In this document: positions 739-10,790 of the stretch, one piece after another
Position numbering within the stretch: the stretch's first letter is position 1
Layout: every line of letters begins with the position of its first letter
NCBI GenBank assembly: GCA_035644495.1
Contig: DASQOM010000190.1
Span: forward strand, 1 to 11,331
Length of the DNA stretch: 11,331 bases
Origin: Planctomycetota bacterium
Lineage (GTDB): Bacteria > Planctomycetota > MHYJ01 > JACPRB01
Direction of reading: 5' to 3'
The notes under the pieces: generated by a model
Databases searched by the model: none
What the model saw: only the letters and a program-made list of their open reading frames with translations
What the model was told of the DNA's origin: nothing
Translations under genes and position numbers: made by a program

Positions 739-1086
739 TTAGTTGTTGGCCTTCTTCTTCTTGGCCGCGAACTCCTCGTCCATCTTCTTCTTCTGGTCGT
801 CGTCCTTGCAGATTTCCTTCAGCTTGTTGATGCCTTCCGTGCGGATCGTGCGGACCTCGCCGTAGGCCGCCTTCTTGTCCGCGGCGTCCTTGGCCTTGTC
901 GGCCGCTTCCTTCACCTTGGGCGTGTATTCCGCGATGATGGGCTCGGCCTTCTTGAGCTGCTCCTCGTCGAAGCCGATCTTGGTCTTCAGGTCGTCGGCC
1001 GTGGGAAAGGACGCGCCCTTGCCCTGGGCCTGAGCCACTCCCGCCGCCAGGAACACCACCGCGACCGCCGTCAGAATATGCCGCAT
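739..1086 (-). CDS. Small secreted Lys/Glu/Ala-rich protein (115 aa) with an N-terminal signal peptide. Possibly a periplasmic alpha-helical chaperone-like protein.
   Basis: ORF 739..1260(-). I place the start at the internal ATG (1086-1084, MRHILTAVAVVFLAAGVAQA|QGKG) because it yields a canonical signal peptide with an AQA cleavage motif and GGGAG lies about 10 nt upstream. The 58 upstream codons are Arg/Pro-rich and look non-coding. The mature part is highly charged (KVKEAADKAKDAADKK...KKKMDEEFAAKKKKANN). No LTXXQ motif seen, so Spy/CpxP membership is unproven. Confidence 0.65.
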   Translation of the reverse strand: MRHILTAVAVVFLAAGVAQAQGKGASFPTADDLKTKIGFDEEQLKKAEPIIAEYTPKVKEAADKAKDAADKKAAYGEVRTIRTEGINKLKEICKDDDQKKKMDEEFAAKKKKANN

Positions 1087-1280: not shown

Positions 1281-3167
1281 ATGGCCCAAGACAAATTCAA
1301 CCTCAAGAAGGTCCTGGCCGACAACTCCCAGGTCAGCGACCTGGCCAATCTCGCCAGCAGCGGGGTCAAGAGGGTCAAGGTCCTGGACGAGAATGCCCTC
1401 CAGGAAATGATCCAGCAGGCCATCGACGAAGTCATCTCCTCGTCCACCGCCGAGGAGCGCTCGCGCATCCTGGCCGACTCGCGCAAGCAGCTGACGAAGC
1501 TGATGAACGAGCGCGACGAGTTCGCCTCGCGGGCCCAGATGCAGGAGGCGGACCGCAACGACCTGATCGCCGAGATCGAGAAGCTCCAGGAGGAGGTCAA
1601 GATCCGTCGCAAGGTCGACGAGAACCAGTCCGCCGCCGACCAGCGCATTGCCGAGCTCGAGGCGGACAACGTCTACGTCCGCGGCGAGCACGACAAGATG
1701 GTCGAGACGCTCGACCAGTGCCAGACCGAGATCAAGGAGCTCAAGGCCGAGATCGCCCGGCTGGAGGCGGAGATCGAGCGCCTCATGGGCCTGCTCCAGG
1801 AGAAGGACGCCCTGCGCCGGCAGTTCGACGAGGCCGAGGCCGAGCTTGCGGCGCTCCGCGACAGCTCCTTGCAGGGCGACACGCTGGCGTCGGAGCTGAA
1901 CAAGTCGAACGAAGAGAACGCGGACCTGCGCCAGCAGCTCGAGGACATGCGTTCCGCGGGCTCGACCGCCGCCTCGGGTCTGCGCCACGAACTGGCCACG
2001 GTCCGCGAGGACTACGAGCGGCGTCTCGCCGAATCCCAGGCAGCGCTCGAGGCGGCCCAGGCCGCGATGCCGCCCCCGGGCCCGGACCCCTACGTCGTCC
2101 TCCCGTCCCCCGAGGTGCTCGAGGAGGTGCTGCCGCCCCCGAAGCCCCCGCCTCCGCCGATCACCAAACCTGGCAAGGGCCTCGACGTCGGGACCGTCAA
2201 CCTGGTCGCCGCCTGCCAGAACCCGGAGAACGAGATCGAACTGCGCACCCAGCGCAACGTCTTCCTCGACGTCGAGATCACGCCGTATACGAAGGCGATG
2301 CTGACCAAGCTGAACGTCGGCTACGTCATCCAGGGCAAGCGCCTCTATATCCTCGGCGAGCCCGCCTTCAAGCTCGCCAACGTGCTGAACCGCCGCACGC
2401 GGCGCCCCATGAAGGACGGCCTGATCTCGCCGAAGGAGCAGGACGCCCTCCCCATCATGAAGCTGCTCATCGGCTCCATCCTCGAGGATCCCCGCATCCC
2501 CCAGGAGGTCTGCTTCTATTCCGTGCCCGGCGACCCCGTCGACTCCGACCTCTCCGTCGCCTACCACCGCGACCTCTTCGACGCCGTCCTGAAGGCGCTC
2601 GGCTACAAGCCCTCCCATATCCTCGAAGGCCACGCGGTCACGTTCGCGGAGCTGGGCGAAGAGGACTTCACCGGCATCGGCGTCTCCTGCGGCGGCGGCA
2701 TGTTCAACATCTGCGTCGCCTACAAGTCGATGCCGGCGCTCTCCTTCTCGACGGCGCGCAGCGGCGACTGGGTGGACATGAACGTGGCCCAGGCGCTGGG
2801 CATCAAGCCCGAGAAAGCCGCGCAGTTGAAGGAACAGGGCGTCGACCTGATGGCGCCGAAGAACCGCGAAGAGGACGCGATCTCGATCTACTACCGCAAC
2901 CTGATCCAGTACAACGTCACCAGCATCGCCGATCGCTTCCGTTCGGCGGACAACATGCCGTCCTTCAAAGATCCGATCTCGATCGTCTTCTCCGGCGGCA
3001 CGTCGATGGCGGGCAACTTCATCGAGCTCGTGAAGGACGTGTTCAAGAAGATCGAGTTCCCCATCCCGGTGAAGGACATCCGCCTGGCGAAGGATGCCCT
3101 GAATGCGACGGCAAAGGGGGCTCTGGTGGCGGCCCAGCTCGAAATGGCTCACCTGGCCTCCCAGTAA
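1281..3167 (+). CDS. Coiled-coil protein fused to an actin-fold (ASKHA; MreB/ParM/FtsA-like) ATPase domain, 628 aa
   Basis: ORF 1143..3167(+). I chose the start at ATG 1281 (MAQDKFNLKK) because it is preceded by a G-rich stretch and the 46 upstream codons look non-coding. Residues ~40-250 are heptad-rich and charged (EIEKLQEEVKIRRKV...IKELKAEIARLEAEIERLMGLLQEK...), giving a long predicted coiled coil. A Pro-rich linker follows (MPPPGPDPYVVLPSPEVLEEVLPPPKPPPPPITKPGKG). The C-terminal ~290 aa carry actin-fold motifs: phosphate-1 LDVGTVNLVAA, PMKDGLISPKE (compare MreB PMKDGVIADFE), phosphate-2 GIGVSCGGGMFNICVAY, and adenosine/connect-2 IVFSGGTSMAGNFIELVKDV...AKGALVAAQLE. The overlapping antisense ORF 1137..3152(-) is a mirror artefact. 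Confidence 0.85.
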   Translation: MAQDKFNLKKVLADNSQVSDLANLASSGVKRVKVLDENALQEMIQQAIDEVISSSTAEERSRILADSRKQLTKLMNERDEFASRAQMQEADRNDLIAEIEKLQEEVKIRRKVDENQSAADQRIAELEADNVYVRGEHDKMVETLDQCQTEIKELKAEIARLEAEIERLMGLLQEKDALRRQFDEAEAELAALRDSSLQGDTLASELNKSNEENADLRQQLEDMRSAGSTAASGLRHELATVREDYERRLAESQAALEAAQAAMPPPGPDPYVVLPSPEVLEEVLPPPKPPPPPITKPGKGLDVGTVNLVAACQNPENEIELRTQRNVFLDVEITPYTKAMLTKLNVGYVIQGKRLYILGEPAFKLANVLNRRTRRPMKDGLISPKEQDALPIMKLLIGSILEDPRIPQEVCFYSVPGDPVDSDLSVAYHRDLFDAVLKALGYKPSHILEGHAVTFAELGEEDFTGIGVSCGGGMFNICVAYKSMPALSFSTARSGDWVDMNVAQALGIKPEKAAQLKEQGVDLMAPKNREEDAISIYYRNLIQYNVTSIADRFRSADNMPSFKDPISIVFSGGTSMAGNFIELVKDVFKKIEFPIPVKDIRLAKDALNATAKGALVAAQLEMAHLASQ

Positions 3168-3259: not shown

Positions 3260-3817
3260 GTGATTGCGTCGTCGAAGACGGTCTGGAGCGCCGGGCACTC
3301 GACCCTGTGGCTCCCCGCGTTTCTCGACCTCGTGGGAGACATCGACCTGATCGTCGACATCCGCCAGTACCCCTATTCCCGTCGATATCCGCACTTCAAC
3401 GGCTCCGAGCTGGCCAAAGAAAAGTCGTACGGGTGGATCCAGGATCTGGGCGGCCGGCGTCACGTTGCGGGCGAGCGGCATCCGGCGTGGCGGGTGGCCG
3501 CGTTCCGGTCCTACGCGGGATATATGGAGACGGAGCCGTTCCAACGGGGGCTTTCGCAGCTGGAACAGATCGCCTCGGATCAGCGGACGGCATTCTTCTG
3601 CGCGGAGGCCCTGTGGTGGCGCTGTCATCGCCGGCTGGTGAGCGACGCCCTCGTGGTACGCGGGTGGACCGTCCTGCACCTGCCGAAGGGGGAGCCGCAT
3701 CGGCTGAGTCCGATGGCGCGCGTCGAGGGGGATGGGACGCTGGTCTACGACGTCGCCGTCAGCTCAGCATCATCACCTTCATCTGGCCGCCCGGGTAGAA
3801 GACGGCGAACCAGGTGA
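3260..3817 (+). CDS. DUF488 family protein (YeaO-like), ~185 aa
   Basis: This is the C-terminal part of the spurious 910-aa ORF 1085..3817. Only the last ~186 codons look protein-like. Diagnostic DUF488 motifs are present: AGHSTL, DIRQYPYSRRYPHFN, LGGRR, YAGYMETEPFQ, FFCAEALWWRCHRRLVSDALVVRGW. I propose a GTG start at 3260 (VIASSKTVWSAGHST) with AGAGG overlapping it; no in-frame ATG is available. The start is uncertain. The 3' end overlaps the convergent gene by 59 nt. Confidence 0.65.
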   Translation: MIASSKTVWSAGHSTLWLPAFLDLVGDIDLIVDIRQYPYSRRYPHFNGSELAKEKSYGWIQDLGGRRHVAGERHPAWRVAAFRSYAGYMETEPFQRGLSQLEQIASDQRTAFFCAEALWWRCHRRLVSDALVVRGWTVLHLPKGEPHRLSPMARVEGDGTLVYDVAVSSASSPSSGRPGRRRRTR

Positions 3818-4427
3818 AGGCGGTCGCGTCGATATAGAGACGATCGGTTTTCGCGCCGAAGGCCCCGAGGACCATGTCGGCCGTCCTGAGGAAGACTTCG
3901 CCGGTGCCCTCGAAGCCGAAAGAGGTATCCCAGAGCATCACTTTGCCCTTCGGATCGATGATCGCTTCCATCGTCCGCTTGAACCCGGGGAGGCCGATCG
4001 AGCCGGTCCAGCCTTCGAGCGCGGTCTGGCCGTTGACCTTGCCTTTCATGAGCGCGTCGCCCATGCCGATCGGGCCGTCGGGCATGCCGCCCATGGCGCG
4101 GTCGAAGAACTCCTTCAGCAGCTTCCGCGATTCCTTGTAGTAGATGAACCTCCAGGACTCGTACTCGGAGGCGAAGCCCGGGCGGACGCGGTCCGGGACC
4201 AGCGTCGTGATCGTGTTCGGCGGGATCGCCGGGACGCTCAGCTTGTAGATGGGGTCGTAGACGGCGGCCGTGGGCTTGAGCTGGGCGAGCAGCTCATTCT
4301 GGATCTCTTCCTTGGACGGACCGCGGGGGCCGATCGCGCCGGTGATGTGGACCGCGGTCCAGTCGGGGATCGCCTGTCGGAGCACATTCAAGGTGTCCGG
4401 CAGCTGGGCCTTGAAGAGGGCCGGCAT
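3759..4427 (-). CDS. Hypothetical protein (~222 aa), family not recognised
   Basis: ORF 3759..4967(-). Its N-terminal 180 codons are Arg/Pro/Gly-rich and overlap the DUF1501 gene, so I treat them as non-coding. The start is taken at ATG 4427-4425 (MPALFKAQLPDTLNVLRQAIPDW...). The downstream sequence has balanced composition (YKESRKLLKEFFDRAMGGMPDGPIGMGDALMKGKVNGQ...DPKGKVMLWDTSFGFEGTGEVFLRTADMVLGAFGAKTDRLYIDATAFTWFAVFYPGG). No signal peptide. A GTG six codons upstream is an alternative start. Confidence 0.6.
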   Translation of the reverse strand: MPALFKAQLPDTLNVLRQAIPDWTAVHITGAIGPRGPSKEEIQNELLAQLKPTAAVYDPIYKLSVPAIPPNTITTLVPDRVRPGFASEYESWRFIYYKESRKLLKEFFDRAMGGMPDGPIGMGDALMKGKVNGQTALEGWTGSIGLPGFKRTMEAIIDPKGKVMLWDTSFGFEGTGEVFLRTADMVLGAFGAKTDRLYIDATAFTWFAVFYPGGQMKVMMLS

Positions 4428-4522
4428 GATCGGCACCGTCTTCACGGCGAGAGCAGGTGTCGAGATCTCCACCGACGAAGGATAACAGGTGATTCCGGGA
4501 GAGTAAAGGAAGCGACCGGAAC

Positions 4523-5872
4523 TTAGACCAGCTCGCGCAGCGGCTTGTATTCTTCCTCGACCAGGTAGTGCGGGCGACCGGCAAGGTCGGTGACCGTCGC
4601 GGCGCCGACGTCGATCCCCAGCCGGTTGTAGAGCGTCGCGAAGACGTCCTGGAAGTGTACGGGACGCGAGTCGGGCTCGCCGCCGTCGCGCGTGGTCGAC
4701 CCGATCACCTGGCCCGTGCGCAGGCCGCCGCCGGCCATCAGGGCGCAGGAGACGCGGGGCCAGTGGTCGCGGCCGCCGTCCTTGTTGATCTGCGGCGTCC
4801 GGCCGAACTCGCCCCAGGCGATCACCGTCACGTCCTTGTCGATGCCGCGGTCGTGCAGGTCCTGCACCAGCGCGCTCATCGCCTGGTCGAAGTCGGGCAG
4901 GTTCCGCTTCGCGTTCTCGAAGTTGCCGCCGTGCCAGTCCCAGAACGAGTAGCTGAAGGTCACGCAACGGACGCCGGCCTCGACGAGCCGCCGCGCGAGC
5001 AGGAACTGCGCGTTGATGCGCGGCGCCCCGTCGCCCTGGTGCACGGTCGTCCCCGTCCCGTAACGCTCGCGCAACGCGGGGTCCTCCTTGGACAGGTCGA
5101 GCGCCGTCGCGAGCCTGCTCGACGTCAGCACGCCGAAGGCCTGCTGCGTGAAGGCGTCGACGCCGTCCATGACGCGGGCCGCATCGGCCTCGCGGCGGAA
5201 GGAGTCGAGGCTCGCCAGCAGGTGCTTGCGGTCCTCGAGCCGCTCCAGCGAGACGCCGTTGAGCGTGAGGTCGTTGCGGCCCTCGTCCTCGGGCTTGAAC
5301 GGCGCGTGGGCGGGTCCCAGGAAGCCCGGCGTGCCGTTATTGTAGGGGCGGTGCTGCATATGGGGCGACAGCGCCATGAACGGCGGCACCGCGGATTGCG
5401 TCGGGCCCTGCACGTGCGAGACGACGGCGCCCAGCTCGGGCCAGCCGCCGCGCGGGAGGTTTTCGTTGAGGCGGCCGGTGAGACACTGGAACGACTCGTG
5501 CCGGTCCTTTGCGCCGACGATCGAGCGGATCGGCACCAGCTTGTCCATCATGCCCGCGAGACGCGGCAGCAGCTCGCAGACCTGGATGCCGTCGACGTTG
5601 GTCTTGATCGGCCGGAACTTCCCGCGGACCTCCGCGGGCGCGTCCATCTTGAGGTCGAACATATCCTGGTGCGGCGGACCGCCGGGCAGGTAGACCATGA
5701 TGACGGCCTTGTGGCCGAGTCCGCCGCTGCGGACCTTCGACGGCGACTGCTGCTGGGCCGCGAGGATCTGCGGAAGGGCGAGGCTGCCCAGGCCGAGGCT
5801 GCCGATGCGCATGAAGGCGCGGCGGGAGATGCCGTCGCAGTAGCGCGCCCCCGAGCCTTCCAGTCGCAGCAT
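4523..5872 (-). CDS. DUF1501 domain protein with twin-arginine (Tat) signal, 449 aa. Sulfatase-like fold; characteristic of Planctomycetota/Verrucomicrobiota.
   Basis: The N-terminus MLRLEGSGARYCDGISRRAFMRIGSLGLGSLALPQILAA is a Tat signal (SRRAFM). The protein is full length and matches the DUF1501 core pattern (HWPRVSCALMAGGG..., WGEFGRTP..., DHW). GGGAGG lies about 14 nt upstream of the ATG. The overlapping +strand ORF 4568..6361 and the -strand ORFs 5337..5927 and 5548..5925 are off-frame artefacts. Confidence 0.9.
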   Translation of the reverse strand: MLRLEGSGARYCDGISRRAFMRIGSLGLGSLALPQILAAQQQSPSKVRSGGLGHKAVIMVYLPGGPPHQDMFDLKMDAPAEVRGKFRPIKTNVDGIQVCELLPRLAGMMDKLVPIRSIVGAKDRHESFQCLTGRLNENLPRGGWPELGAVVSHVQGPTQSAVPPFMALSPHMQHRPYNNGTPGFLGPAHAPFKPEDEGRNDLTLNGVSLERLEDRKHLLASLDSFRREADAARVMDGVDAFTQQAFGVLTSSRLATALDLSKEDPALRERYGTGTTVHQGDGAPRINAQFLLARRLVEAGVRCVTFSYSFWDWHGGNFENAKRNLPDFDQAMSALVQDLHDRGIDKDVTVIAWGEFGRTPQINKDGGRDHWPRVSCALMAGGGLRTGQVIGSTTRDGGEPDSRPVHFQDVFATLYNRLGIDVGAATVTDLAGRPHYLVEEEYKPLRELV

Positions 5873-6357: not shown

Positions 6358-8382
6358 CTAGGCCGCCTTCGAGGGCGGGTCCTGGCTGTCCAGGGACAGG
6401 CCGGACTTCTCCGCCACCAGCAGGCTGAGCAGGGTCCCCATCAGGCTCGACCCCGACTTGCCGTCGGCGCCGCCCGTGATGAGGAGCCGCTCGGGCACCA
6501 GGGGCTGCTTGCTCTCGCTGAGCCGCTGGGCCACCAGGGCCAGGGCATAGAGCCTCGGATCGCCGTACGCCGCGATCTTCCGCTCCTGCACCCGCGCCTC
6601 CGCCTCGCCTTCGAGCGACAGACGCCGGCTCTCGCCTTCGCCGACCAGCACCCTCGTGCGCCCCTCCGATTCCGCGAGGAGCACCTTCTTCTTGCTGTCG
6701 CCTTCGGCCGTGACGACGGATTCCTCCGCCTGCTTCCGAGCCAGGGCAAGCTTCGCATCGCCCCGGTTTCCGGAGATCTCCACCTCCACCTTCGAGTTCG
6801 TCAACTCCGTCTGCTTCTCCGCCAGCGCCTGGGCGGTCTTCAGCGTGAGCAGCTTGTCCGCGGCCAGCCGCTGCTGCTCGTAGGTCTCCACCTGCTCGCG
6901 CGCCAGCTGCCGCATCCGCAGCTGCTCCAGCAGCGTTTCGATCGCCCCGCCGGCCCCCGCCGTGTCGGGCTTCCCGATCAGCACGTCCACGAGCTCGATG
7001 TCGAACTCCGCGAACCGGAAGCGCAGCTCGCGCCTCGCCTCCTGCTGGATCTGGTCCCGGTCGTGCAGGAGCTGCAGCATCGTCTTCTTGTGGGCGATGT
7101 CCCGGAAGTACGCGCTCAGCATCGGATCGAGCGTCTGCGTGATCAGCTTCTTCACGTCGCCGAACCGCTGCACCACCTTGGGCGCCTTCTGATAGTCGAT
7201 GTGGACCACCACCGACAGCGGGAGCACCGGCTCGTACGCGTCGGCCGTCACCAGGTCGATCGACTTCAGCGTCTCGTCATAGCGGTGGCTCTCCGTGCGC
7301 CCCGTGATCCAGTGCAGGACGAAGTTCGTCGTGGGCACCAGATACACGCAGCCGGCGTACGTGTTGAAGGGGTACTTGCCGGGGCCCAGCGTTTCAGCGA
7401 GGACTCCTCGTTCACCCTCGACCACCTGCTCGCCATGACGGAACCCCTTGCCCGTCAGGTCTTCTCCTTTCTGCCCGAAGTAGCTCACCACGACTCCCAC
7501 GGAGCCGATCGGAACCACCGTCTTGGGCACGATCTCCACGGACGCGAACCACCGGTTCAGGAAGTACGTCCCGTCCGTCAGGGGCACGTACTGCCGGCCT
7601 CGACGGCCGCCGGCCTTCAGGAACGTCTCCACGTCCTGGTAGTTGCTGTGGTACGACGGCCCTTCCGGGTCCGTCCCCACCGGCGGGGCGATGATCTCGC
7701 CCGGCCCCAGCGCGGGTCCGTCGTGGACGGTGACGATCGCGATCGAGTCGTCCGACTCCGACGCGTCCTCGCGGTTCCGGCTGTGGCTCCGGTCGATCAC
7801 GACCGGGCTGAACCCCTTGATGTCCTGCAGCTCCTTCTGCCACTTCTTGAAGGTCTCGGTCTGCTGACGGTCGCCCAGCTCGAGGCTGTACACCGTGTCC
7901 TCGGTGATCACCACGAAAAGCGCCACGTTGATCGCGTAGACGCCTTCGCGGAGGATCGCCCGCTGGCGGCCCCGCTGCCCCACCACGCCCTTGCCCGGCG
8001 CCAGGAACGCCCGCGCGTTCTGGAAGTGGTTGCAGTCGATCACCCGGCCCAGCGTCTGCTCCGGCGGCAGCGCCTGGCCGTCCCGGGCGAAGACATAGCC
8101 GATCTTGCCCTGCGGGACCGACGTCAGCCGGGACTTGTGCACACGGAACTGCCACGGCCAGTACCCGAAGTGCACGCCGCCGCGGAGGATCTCCGACTGC
8201 AGGCCCGCCTCTCCGGCGAGCGCGATCAGCCGTCCCTCCGGAAGCGACCCGCGGCCGGACCACAACTTCTCCACGATCCCGACCCGGTTGTTGGGGATGA
8301 CCCGCATTCCCAGCAGCGCCGGCACCAGGAGCAGGACCGCCACGACCGCCATGGCGCCCAGAACCCATCCGAAGCTCAACAT
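6358..8382 (-). CDS. Flotillin-like SPFH/Band-7 domain protein (YqiK/FloT-like), 674 aa
   Basis: ORF 6358..8502(-). The start is taken at ATG 8382 (MLSFGWVLGAMAVVAVLLLVPALLGM, an N-terminal membrane anchor), preceded by AAAGGAGGGGCTT-ATG. An SPFH core is present (VVVHIDYQKAPKVVQRFGDVKKLITQTLDPMLSAYFRDIAHKKTMLQLLHDRDQIQ). A long C-terminal coiled-coil/flotillin-repeat region follows (EQVETYEQQRLAADKLLTLKTAQALAEKQTEL...EGEAEARVQERKIAAYG). The overlapping ORFs 6130..8598(+) and 7412..8368(-) are off-frame artefacts. Confidence 0.9.
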   Translation of the reverse strand: MLSFGWVLGAMAVVAVLLLVPALLGMRVIPNNRVGIVEKLWSGRGSLPEGRLIALAGEAGLQSEILRGGVHFGYWPWQFRVHKSRLTSVPQGKIGYVFARDGQALPPEQTLGRVIDCNHFQNARAFLAPGKGVVGQRGRQRAILREGVYAINVALFVVITEDTVYSLELGDRQQTETFKKWQKELQDIKGFSPVVIDRSHSRNREDASESDDSIAIVTVHDGPALGPGEIIAPPVGTDPEGPSYHSNYQDVETFLKAGGRRGRQYVPLTDGTYFLNRWFASVEIVPKTVVPIGSVGVVVSYFGQKGEDLTGKGFRHGEQVVEGERGVLAETLGPGKYPFNTYAGCVYLVPTTNFVLHWITGRTESHRYDETLKSIDLVTADAYEPVLPLSVVVHIDYQKAPKVVQRFGDVKKLITQTLDPMLSAYFRDIAHKKTMLQLLHDRDQIQQEARRELRFRFAEFDIELVDVLIGKPDTAGAGGAIETLLEQLRMRQLAREQVETYEQQRLAADKLLTLKTAQALAEKQTELTNSKVEVEISGNRGDAKLALARKQAEESVVTAEGDSKKKVLLAESEGRTRVLVGEGESRRLSLEGEAEARVQERKIAAYGDPRLYALALVAQRLSESKQPLVPERLLITGGADGKSGSSLMGTLLSLLVAEKSGLSLDSQDPPSKAA

Positions 8383-8411
8383 AAGCCCCTCCTTTCGTCG
8401 GGGCCCTTCAT

Positions 8412-8427
8412 CGCAAGGGGCATGCCA
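8412..8427 (-). promoter_or_regulatory. σ54 (RpoN) -24/-12 promoter upstream of the flotillin gene: TGGCATG-CCCC-TTGCG
   Basis: The minus strand at 8427-8412 reads TGGCATGCCCCTTGCG, against the consensus TGGCACG-N4-TTGCW. The GG and GC dinucleotides are at the correct spacing and 10/12 consensus positions match. The predicted TSS is about 8401, giving a ~19-nt leader with AGGAGG before the ATG at 8382. A σ54 activator gene lies divergently 113 bp away. Confidence 0.55.
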
Positions 8428-8461
8428 CGGCGCGGCGTGCAACCCCCTGGAAGCCAGGCCG

Positions 8462-8490
8462 TTGCCCGGGGACCCGACCCGGGATATGGT
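8462..8490 (+). promoter_or_regulatory. Candidate σ70-type promoter for the bEBP gene (TTGCCC-N17-TATGGT)
   Basis: -35-like TTGCCC (8462-8467), 17-nt spacer, -10-like TATGGT (8485-8490); each hexamer matches at 4/6. It would give a 40-50 nt leader to the ATG at 8540. It overlaps the inverted-repeat patch, which would allow autoregulation. Confidence 0.2.
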
Positions 8491-8509
8491 GTTTTTCACC
8501 AAGGTTGGT
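8487..8509. promoter_or_regulatory. Cluster of short perfect inverted repeats (TGGTG-TTTTT-CACCA and ACCAA-GG-TTGGT) in the divergent intergenic region. Candidate enhancer (UAS) for the bEBP.
   Basis: TGGTGtttttCACCA (8487-8501) overlaps ACCAAggTTGGT (8498-8509). This is an AT-rich patch in otherwise GC-rich DNA, 60-85 bp upstream of the σ54 -24 element, which is the typical position for bEBP binding sites. CCTGGaagCCAGG at 8446-8458 is another palindrome nearby. Confidence 0.3.
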
Positions 8510-8539: not shown

Positions 8540-9901
<1,362 letters not shown>

Positions 9902-9908
9902 GAGTAGC

Positions 9909-10790
9909 ATGATCCTGCTGCTGCTCGCCGTCCTGCTCGCCCAGGCCGCTCCCGCCGATGGCAACCCGGGGCATCTCAAGATGGCCCTGGTGAATCTCAA
10001 GTCCGTCACCAGCGACGGCACGGATCCCGCCGCCAACGCGGCCGCGATCCAGGCGAACCTGAAACGGCACGCCGACTTCATCGACCGCCTCGCGTCGGAC
10101 GGCGTCGAGTTCGTCGGTTTCCCCGAGCTGTCGGTGAACGGCTACCACTTCAGCAAGACGATGACCTGGCTCAGGCTCGACGGGCCCGAAGTGCAGGCGC
10201 TGCAGAAGAAGGCCGTGGACAAGCGCGTCTATGTCAGCGCCGGGATCGCCGAGATCGACGCGGACGGCAAGACGTGGAACACGCAGATCGTGATCGACCC
10301 CGGGGGCAAGCTGCTCGGCAGCCACCATAAGGTCTATCTGACCAAGGAGAACGGCTTCACCGAGAAGGGCACCGACCACAACGTCTTCGAGGTGAAAGGC
10401 GTGAAGCTGGGGATTTCGACGTGCGCGGACGGGTCGGACCGGAAGAACCTCGACGCGCTCGTCGGGAACGGCGCGAAGATCATCTACGGACCGCACGCGA
10501 ACACGACGGGCGGGACGACGGCGGGATGGTACAAGTTCCGCGCCGCCTGGGGTGGGCCCGAGGGGTGGATCGCGCAGCTCAAGGTGACGGCCGCCCTGCA
10601 CAACCACGCCGGTCTCTACAATCCGGACTATGGCGCGCCGGCCGGCGCCGACGCGAACACGGGCTGGGCAAGCGGCTCCTGGTTCATCGGCCCCGACGGC
10701 GCCACGCTTTCGCAGATGCCGCCGTCGACCCAGAAATCGGACAGCAAGGAGTACGTCCTTATCCAGAACATCCTCTTGGGCCGCCCCTGA
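9909..10790 (+). CDS. Carbon-nitrogen hydrolase (nitrilase-superfamily) protein with N-terminal signal peptide, 293 aa
   Basis: The start is 7 nt after the bEBP stop, with GGAG at 9900-9903. The signal peptide is MILLLLAVLLAQAAPADG (AQA-A cleavage motif). The nitrilase-superfamily catalytic triad is in canonical order and spacing: Glu in VGFPELS, Lys in GSHHKVYLT, Cys in LGISTCADGS. The antisense ORFs 9849..10793(-) and 8408..10081(-) are artefacts. Confidence 0.85.
   Translation: MILLLLAVLLAQAAPADGNPGHLKMALVNLKSVTSDGTDPAANAAAIQANLKRHADFIDRLASDGVEFVGFPELSVNGYHFSKTMTWLRLDGPEVQALQKKAVDKRVYVSAGIAEIDADGKTWNTQIVIDPGGKLLGSHHKVYLTKENGFTEKGTDHNVFEVKGVKLGISTCADGSDRKNLDALVGNGAKIIYGPHANTTGGTTAGWYKFRAAWGGPEGWIAQLKVTAALHNHAGLYNPDYGAPAGADANTGWASGSWFIGPDGATLSQMPPSTQKSDSKEYVLIQNILLGRP

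Follow-up and report, generated by a model that had tools for sequence, protein, structure and literature searches.

In the ParM/ParR system of type II plasmid partition the N-terminus of ParR binds cargo and its C-terminal tail binds the actin protomer. Crenactin of the Thermoproteales is encoded in the 'arcade' cluster with the arcadins, which include the coiled-coil protein arcadin-4 and the small arcadin-2, whose C-terminal peptide binds the actin cleft. In deep-branching magnetotactic bacteria the actin-like MamK/Mad28 is found with a network of coiled-coil Mad proteins, and these partners are separate proteins (PMC12748827). Volactin (VolA, HVO_2015) is an actin homologue of Haloferax volcanii. 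Its filaments are dynamic in vivo, and it promotes the change from rods to disks (PMC10869688). The tips of VolA filaments touch the membrane (PMC10869688). Neither a coiled-coil partner nor bacterial relatives of VolA are mentioned in that paper. The locus described here lies in a stretch of 11,331 nucleotides (nt) from a Planctomycetota bacterium (GenBank assembly GCA_035644495.1, contig DASQOM010000190.1), referred to below as the window. It contains a gene in which an actin-like ATPase of the volactin family is joined to an N-terminal half bearing a coiled coil.

The gene is a single long open reading frame (ORF) on the plus strand ending at position 3167. The ORF list and translation gave a protein of 628 amino acids (aa) followed by a stop codon. 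The protein was 100% identical to NCBI entry HZE97934.1, named 'hypothetical protein VE981_12975 [Planctomycetota bacterium]'. This agreed with the host phylum given in a preliminary description of the window made from the sequence alone. Approximately 45 full-length homologues of the fused protein were found with identities of 46-80% and the same start and layout. An M-A-x-D start is conserved in these homologues, which align from residue 1, and the ATG at 1281 was therefore taken as the right start. Long antisense and out-of-frame ORFs overlie the gene, as is expected by chance in DNA of 62-70% GC content. The homologue list contained two size classes. Proteins of 620-710 aa spanned the whole query while proteins of ~350 aa spanned the actin half only, with 55-60% identity.

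Positions 1281-3167 very probably represent a natural fusion in which both members of a recurrent gene pair of Planctomycetota metagenome-assembled genomes (MAGs) were joined. This was concluded because the coiled-coil half has a homologue encoded on its own, in a gene lying ahead of the actin gene across this phylum. The coiled coil had been described as the protein's own scaffold, but it is not a newly arisen one, given its homology to the separate upstream partner. At locus L003 a 421-aa gene without a Pfam match precedes the short actin gene, and 11 nt are shared between it and the actin gene as called. The N-terminus of the 421-aa protein resembles that of the window protein (BLASTP E=2e-6 over 77 aa). 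Further loci were taken as the 80 best of 320 matching stretches in GTDB species representatives. Nearly all were Planctomycetota MAGs, including Brocadiaceae, Phycisphaeraceae and Planctomycetia. Hidden Markov models (HMMs) of the N-terminal head (N-module) and of the actin domain were scanned over the stop-to-stop ORFs of loci L001-L083, including three fetched earlier, and of the window. The two were found in the same ORF in eight cases, namely the window, L001, L002, L004-L007 and L014. At 66 loci the N-module was in an ORF of its own immediately before the actin ORF; these represent 65 distinct places (L032 lies on the same contig as L003), and the adjacency thus recurs at roughly 65 of the 80 best loci. 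No N-module was found in four loci, and in three of them the sequence ahead of the actin gene was shorter than 1 kb. Matches of the N-module HMM to the stand-alone partners ranged from E 1e-5 to 1e-29 (hmmsearch). The N-module of the window protein scored 150 bits against this HMM and aligned with 65 split partners.

The split system consists of the partner gene and, directly downstream and often overlapping, a gene for a volactin-family actin-like ATPase of ~350 aa. In stand-alone partners a conserved N-terminal head is followed by a stalk that varies and then by a linker rich in Gly, and the chain ends in a conserved motif of ~45 aa (C-motif). The C-motif consensus is ..RPSEAALEALFS..ELESNLKKVEVKEKKAGGVASALAKLKNLRKGG, also given as ..ELESNφ..φ.φ..K..G.φ...L.KLK.L..GG, and is preceded by the Gly-rich stretch. 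The C-motif HMM matched 74 split-type ORFs at E<1e-3 and none of the eight fused ORFs, window included, even at E<=10. As it lacks the C-motif, the window protein was regarded as a derived fusion and not as a typical member of the partner family. A word-indexed profile search with the N-module alignment gave 34 matches, mostly fragments, and was replaced by an exhaustive profile search of 1.84 billion representatives. This gave 555 clusters at E<=1e-3, of which 223 remained at E<=1e-10. In these 555 clusters the N-module was almost always at residues 1-150, the extreme N-terminus. Among 176 retrieved N-module sequences 95 had the N-module and the C-motif (median 321 aa), three had the N-module and the actin domain, and the rest were fragments or long proteins. 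Of these 95, 86 had the C-motif at the very C-terminal end of the chain. With 3 of 176 against 95 of 176, the fused architecture is a real but minority form. The partner family (N-module and C-motif) had no counterpart in Pfam, NCBIfam or the PDB. Open-access papers and preprints yielded no description of a coiled-coil partner, or of a fusion, for the volactin-like proteins of Planctomycetota. The overall reading favoured here, with some confidence, is a fusion of the partner and actin genes in which a Pro-rich tether stands in place of a presumed actin-docking motif and the fused paralogue has a nucleating or anchoring role. The specific role as nucleator or anchor is put forward far more cautiously.

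The actin half of the protein was compared to known families and structures. Pfam PF25216 (Volactin) covers aa 299-618, corresponding to profile positions 3-321 of 321, with a score of 269.6 bits (E=5.8e-80) and a gathering cutoff of 35. Every homologue in the list bears the same precomputed PF25216 match. Some of the short planctomycete homologues are named 'disk-shape morphogenesis protein volactin' by NCBI. By this profile match the actin domain is a member of the already defined Pfam Volactin family and not an orphan. The preliminary description had not recognised the architecture; the fused form is indeed without functional annotation in the database sources examined, but its actin domain is thus already a named family. 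An AlphaFold2 model of the whole protein was built on a 60-row alignment and the predicted local distance difference test (pLDDT) was >90 across the actin domain. The Foldseek check that had been advised for the C-terminal domain was run against the PDB. MreB, MamK and BeeR were the top structures, with a probability of 1.0, E values of 2.6e-14 to 1.7e-12 and target template modelling (TM) scores <=0.74, and the proposed actin fold was upheld. The top 50 structures also included FtsA and the non-filament protein EutJ beside filament formers. A PDB sequence search with the whole protein gave no meaningful relative.

The nucleotide-binding motifs were aligned with those of Escherichia coli MreB, and this alignment serves as a guide only. 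The phosphate-1 and adenosine motifs reported earlier were recovered, as was the MreB-like PMKDG element, which is RRPMKDG at aa 374-380. The phosphate-2 motif was recovered for its three glycines and not for its acidic residue. The canonical Asp of D-x-G-G-G is Ser469 in the window protein, and this Ser was invariant in 60 of 60 aligned relatives, both fused and short. The other invariant phosphate-2 residues across the 60 relatives were G471-G473, M474, F475 and N476. Classical actin-like families were below their thresholds. FtsA scored 22.4 bits with PF14450 (cutoff 31.8) and 13.9 bits with TIGR01174 (cutoff 175.85). The MamK model NF040964 of NCBIfam scored 12.9 bits (cutoff 400) and no magnetosome genes were found in the window. 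MreB_Mbl (PF06723) gave no match in the window protein at E<=1, and paralogues of the window protein scored 16-17 bits against a cutoff of 27. By the tests made here the protein falls outside MreB, FtsA and MamK, as the preliminary description had suggested for the classical families, and no sequence match to ParM was found.

Some of these results would also fit a protein that does not polymerise. The window protein would then be an ASKHA-fold ATPase on a coiled-coil scaffold, acting as an FtsA- or PilM-like organiser of a membrane or complex, or in a chaperone-like way, with the actin domain as a regulated binding module. The invariant change from Asp to Ser in phosphate-2 is consistent with this, as are the weak FtsA-type similarity (22.4 bits) and the presence of FtsA and EutJ among the top 50 structures. 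However, Volactin is by far the best family at 269.6 bits and its type member is filament-forming in vivo (PMC10869688). The closest structures, MreB, MamK and BeeR, are filament formers, and tandem paralogues and actin-actin fusions in the same loci suggest protomer-protomer contacts. A non-polymerising ATPase is therefore considered unlikely.

The favoured reading, a fusion of partner and polymerising actin, also depends on the parts that precede the actin domain. The division into a helical rod, a Pro-rich linker and an actin-fold ATPase was borne out by the AlphaFold2 model, by a Pro content of 43% at aa 262-298 and by PF25216. The N-terminal ~250 aa had been described as coiled coil. This was correct for the helical region at aa 57-261, where AlphaFold2 predicted helices at 57-194 and 201-261. 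The heptad score of aa 57-261 was 0.55 compared to 0.42±0.02 in 100 shuffles, or ~6 standard deviations by a crude home-made score. It was not correct for aa 1-56, which are not coiled coil and belong to the conserved head module, and it applied to part of the stalk only in terms of heptad register. Profile libraries gave only weak coiled-coil matches of the SMC/Rad50/PspA type for the stalk. Among the fused homologues aa 1-~100 are strongly conserved while the middle of the stalk differs in length by >100 residues. The linker is disordered and non-helical in the AlphaFold2 model, with the lowest confidence at aa 268-276. In homologues it is variable yet Pro-rich with a recurring P-φ-φ-V-L-P-S-x-E element. 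Its position is that at which stand-alone partners have the Gly-rich linker and then the C-terminal motif.

The signature of the N-module is ..FN/DφxKVφ....L..L...G...VKVLDE..φ..φI..AφD.Vφ..(S/T)..ER..φ...SR..L..L..E. No consistent Pfam match was found for it, and no ribbon-helix-helix (RHH), helix-turn-helix (HTH) or other DNA-binding family was found in 41 N-modules even at E<=10. The N-module profile had no relative in the PDB. In the low-confidence AlphaFold2 model aa 29-60 form an extended segment, a helix at 37-52, a short S/T turn and a helix from 57.

Other proteins outside the window carry the N-module or volactin domains in different arrangements. In representatives P0168, P0169, P0171, P0183 and P0187 the N-module is followed by a coiled coil of ~500-900 aa and a C-terminal transposase-like domain, PF13701 (DDE_Tnp_1_4). 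Such fusions of the N-module and a DDE domain comprise at least five representative clusters of 1058-1225 aa. Because of these fusions the head looks like a reusable module, placed at the N-terminus of coiled-coil proteins whose C-terminal ends differ. The long proteins P0163, P0189 and P0192 have the N-module and no Pfam match, and the C-terminal region of P0163 is visibly as in the DDE class. P0065 (742 aa) has two tandem volactin domains at aa 10-302 and 350-678. This is a second kind of fusion and hints at protomer-protomer contacts. Weak N-module HMM matches inside actin domains were rejected as an artefact, as the HMM seed was contaminated by P0065.

The nature of the head bears on a second alternative, in which the system positions DNA in the manner of ParMRC. 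The head would bind DNA, for example as an RHH domain, and the partner would be a giant ParR-like adaptor whose C-motif inserts in the actin protomer so that the filament moves DNA. The fused form would be a one-piece adaptor-motor. The layout of the split partner parallels that of ParR, with its N-terminal DNA-binding dimer and C-terminal ParM-binding tail, and the predicted topology of aa 29-60 is compatible with RHH. The fusion of N-module and coiled coil to DDE_Tnp_1_4 in at least five clusters would fit a nucleic-acid-binding head. Salactin, a relative from haloarchaea, helps to partition DNA according to work cited in PMC10869688. The profile results point the other way, with no RHH, HTH or other DNA-binding family at E<=10 in the 41 N-modules and no PDB relative. 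The head model is of low confidence (pLDDT 64, predicted TM score (pTM) 0.30). The partner gene is upstream of the actin gene, unlike the parM-parR order. The loci are chromosomal with flanking housekeeping genes, and no plasmid or phage genes were among the listed neighbours, with no search made of defence, phage or plasmid libraries. A DNA-positioning system of this kind is judged quite improbable.

The fusion of partner and actin was then considered in relation to the paralogues of both genes. Split loci of the clade nearest the window comprise three genes, which are the partner, a short actin ~80% identical to the window domain, and a second volactin paralogue. The second paralogue is 590-690 aa long, with the actin domain at residues ~165-500 and N-terminal (~165-190 aa) and C-terminal extensions, both without a Pfam match. 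In the four MAGs compared, its actin domain and that of the fused gene were ~52-56% identical. The second paralogue was found at L008-L013, L015-L024, L026, L028 and L035 (for example L013:3535-5469), and also at L074 and L077. At two distant loci (L003:9447-10547 and the P0095 locus) the short volactin-like gene is followed, in the same orientation, by a Peptidase_MA_2 gene, which may be another conserved neighbour. Four MAGs, JBGPCZ01, DASVNH01, JAHFOZ01 and CAZUJF01, each had a fused gene on one contig and a split operon on another. Between the fused and split versions in these four MAGs the actin domains were 77-86% identical and the N-modules 31-38%. A chimeric origin, with the head from another paralogue and the actin from the operon, was suspected from this gap and was rejected, as the gap is the normal rate ratio of split pairs. 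Split-split pairs at 75-85% actin identity had a median head identity of 35%. As the fused and split identities match this ratio, simple duplication and fusion remains an adequate explanation. The fused actin domains clustered with the short actins of the closest clade in a neighbour-joining tree (no bootstrap support). An assembly artefact, in which a frameshift, misassembly or lost stop merged two adjacent genes in a MAG, might be suspected where all data are metagenomic and the adjacent or overlapping split arrangement is commoner, but it is excluded for practical purposes by the eight independent fused loci from different samples, the ~45 distinct full-length proteins (46-80% identity, same start and Pro-rich linker) and the consistent loss of the ~45-aa C-motif, which simple read-through would keep, and the fused and split versions in the same MAGs also differ in sequence.

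A working model for the fused protein as a product of the partner and actin genes can be proposed. The C-motif of the stand-alone partner would be the element that docks on the actin protomer, as the ParR tail and arcadin-2 are established to do. In the fused protein the C-motif and the intergenic region are gone and a Pro-rich tether joins the stalk to the actin domain; this covalent link would make the C-motif redundant. The stalk would dimerise and thereby display a pair of actin protomers at one end and a pair of N-modules at the opposite end. In the presence of ATP the actin domain would polymerise, as volactin of H. volcanii forms filaments in vivo, and would probably co-assemble with the 77-86%-identical free actin of the split operon. 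The fused paralogue could then serve as a built-in nucleator, cap, end-anchor or cross-linker of volactin-like filaments, with the N-modules tying the assembly to a target.

Several points weigh against this model. The change of Asp to Ser469 in phosphate-2 may mean that ATP hydrolysis, or polymerisation dynamics coupled to ATP hydrolysis, differ from those of MreB and ParM. The continuous heptad register is limited to aa ~134-195, and part of the stalk could therefore be a single helix or another bundle. The AlphaFold2 confidence of the N-module was low (pLDDT 44-64), and the head modelled alone on a 122-row alignment reached pLDDT 64 and pTM 0.30. This model was too poor for fold comparison. 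In the N-module tree the fused heads were nearer to the class of ~1000-aa coiled-coil proteins than to the operon partners. An origin by domain shuffling, instead of read-through fusion of neighbours, is therefore possible on the tree evidence. All loci are from MAGs or metagenomes, and the finding of fused and split forms together depends on the binning. Function, polymerisation, dimerisation and the binding of the C-motif to actin were all inferred from sequence and models.

A broader proposal is offered as speculation. The protein with N-module, coiled coil and C-motif, together with one or more volactin-like actins, may form an undescribed cytomotive machine that is widespread in the Planctomycetota and acts in division or budding, membrane remodelling or chromosome positioning. 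The fused paralogue would be its nucleator or anchor. The N-module would be a general targeting head, also used for domesticated cargo resembling DDE transposases.

The features of the window are listed in Table 1. Upstream of the fused gene the divergent gene for a small Lys-rich secreted protein was present as first described, with a signal peptide. No detectable homologue of this protein adjoins other fused genes. Downstream, a DUF488 gene follows after a gap of 92 nt and was confirmed as DUF488 by Pfam. The preliminary description had taken this gene to be probably co-transcribed with the fused gene. No terminator-like site was found in the 92-nt gap, in agreement with it, but relatives have no conserved DUF488 downstream. 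DUF488 was absent downstream in L001, L002, L004-L007, L014 and the P0007 locus, and conservation lends no support to a functional link. Homologues of the convergent ~235-aa gene (BLASTP 62-74% identity) immediately follow the fused gene in L001 and L006, and one is found close by in L004. A 237-aa gene is also present in the P0007 locus. By these comparisons the ~235-aa gene is the only conserved neighbour of the fused gene and is a candidate for a functional link. In the P0007 locus the Band_7/SPFH gene and the sigma-54-dependent activator again form a pair, at a distance of ~4-6 kb from the fused gene. A CN_hydrolase gene is also found divergently upstream of the fused gene in L002.

Table 1. 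Coordinates of the fused gene, its encoded parts and the neighbouring genes in the 11,331-nt window
Feature	Position (nt)	Strand	Description
Small Lys-rich protein gene	739-1086	-	Signal peptide; divergent, upstream of fused gene; no Pfam match
Fused gene	1281..3167 (including stop)	+	628-aa fusion of N-module, coiled-coil stalk, Pro-rich linker and volactin-family actin-like ATPase
N-module (head)	1281..1550	+	aa 1-~90; strongly conserved among fused proteins
Helical stalk	1449..2063	+	aa 57-261; clearest heptad register aa ~134-195 (nt 1680-1865)
Pro-rich linker	2064..2174	+	aa 262-298; PPPGPDPYVVLPSPEVLEEVLPPPKPPPPPITKPGK; 43% Pro
Volactin-family actin-fold ATPase domain	2175..3134	+	aa 299-618 by Pfam; fold runs on to aa ~627
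Phosphate-1 G-L-D-V-G-T-V	2178..2198	+	aa 300-306; D302, G304 and T305 invariant; aligns with MreB IDLGTANT
R-R-P-M-K-D-G element	2400..2420	+	aa 374-380; R374, R375, P376, M377 and G380 invariant; matches MreB RPMKDG
Phosphate-2 G-I-G-V-S-C-G-G-G-M-F-N-I-C	2673..2714	+	aa 465-478; aligns with MreB motif VVDIGGGTTEVAV
Adenosine motif F-S-G-G-T-S-M-A-G-N-F	2988..3020	+	aa 570-580; G572, G573, T574 and F580 invariant; aligns with MreB LTGGGALLRNL
DUF488 gene		 	Downstream of fused gene
~235-aa gene	3759-4466	-	No Pfam match; convergent to DUF488 gene and overlaps its 3' end
DUF1501 gene	4523-5872	-	Flanks region; common in planctomycetes
Band_7/SPFH (flotillin-like) gene	6358-8502	-	714-aa protein with long C-terminal coiled-coil-like tail; divergent from sigma-54-dependent activator
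Sigma-54-dependent activator gene	~8560-9901	+	Divergent partner of Band_7/SPFH gene
CN_hydrolase gene	9909-10790	+	Product apparently secreted

Gene fusion is a classic hint of physical interaction. Here it links a volactin-family actin to an unannotated coiled-coil family and suggests that the two parts work together in a bacterial cytoskeletal system. The gene pair occurs in hundreds of Planctomycetota species, with 320 stretches in GTDB representatives, and the partner head in 555 clusters. The volactin family is extended from the haloarchaea into bacteria, with a defined partner. The N-module and the C-motif provide two short conserved handles. The main value of the locus lies more in this two- or three-gene system of actin and adaptor, widespread in Planctomycetota and not found described, than in the fusion itself. 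Planctomycetota are reported to lack FtsZ (PMC11032199) and the canonical division genes of Planctopirus limnophila are dispensable (PMC6952346). For these reasons the conserved pairing of an actin filament with an adaptor offers a testable candidate for part of the unexplained cell biology of the planctomycetes.

The window protein and its split relatives were compared to the described systems. The nearest functional analogues are ParM/ParR, crenactin with the arcadins and MamK/Mad28 with the Mad proteins, whose partners are all separate proteins. The window protein and its split relatives resemble ParM/ParR and related Alp/adaptor pairs in that an actin-like ATPase is encoded beside a dedicated adaptor and the split partner consists of a head, a spacer and a C-terminal motif. 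They differ from it in having no sequence match to ParM or ParR, a partner gene upstream of the actin gene and a coiled-coil spacer of 100-400 aa. The context is chromosomal, unlike that of ParM/ParR, and the pair recurs across Planctomycetota MAGs. To our knowledge no covalent fusion of adaptor and actin exists for ParMR. As with crenactin and the arcadins, an actin homologue is clustered with partner proteins. The actin family and the domain of life are different, however, and no homology between the partners was detected. We also know of no fusion in the crenactin/arcadin system. The MamK/Mad28 system likewise combines actin-like filaments with coiled-coil proteins, and MamK was among the best structural matches (target TM 0.74), whereas the partner is fused in the window protein. 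'Saltatorellin', a MamK-like actin of Saltatorellus (bioRxiv 10.1101/817700), may or may not belong to the volactin-like family. MreB was the top structural match and has the RPMKDG, phosphate-1 and adenosine motifs in common with the window protein. It differs in a Foldseek-aligned identity of only ~15-18%, in the phosphate-2 motif, where the window protein has Ser for Asp, and in having no coiled-coil extension. The window protein resembles VolA in that its C-terminal domain fits PF25216 end to end and has an MreB-like actin fold. VolA is archaeal and was described without a fused domain, whereas the window protein is bacterial and carries 298 aa of N-module, stalk and linker.

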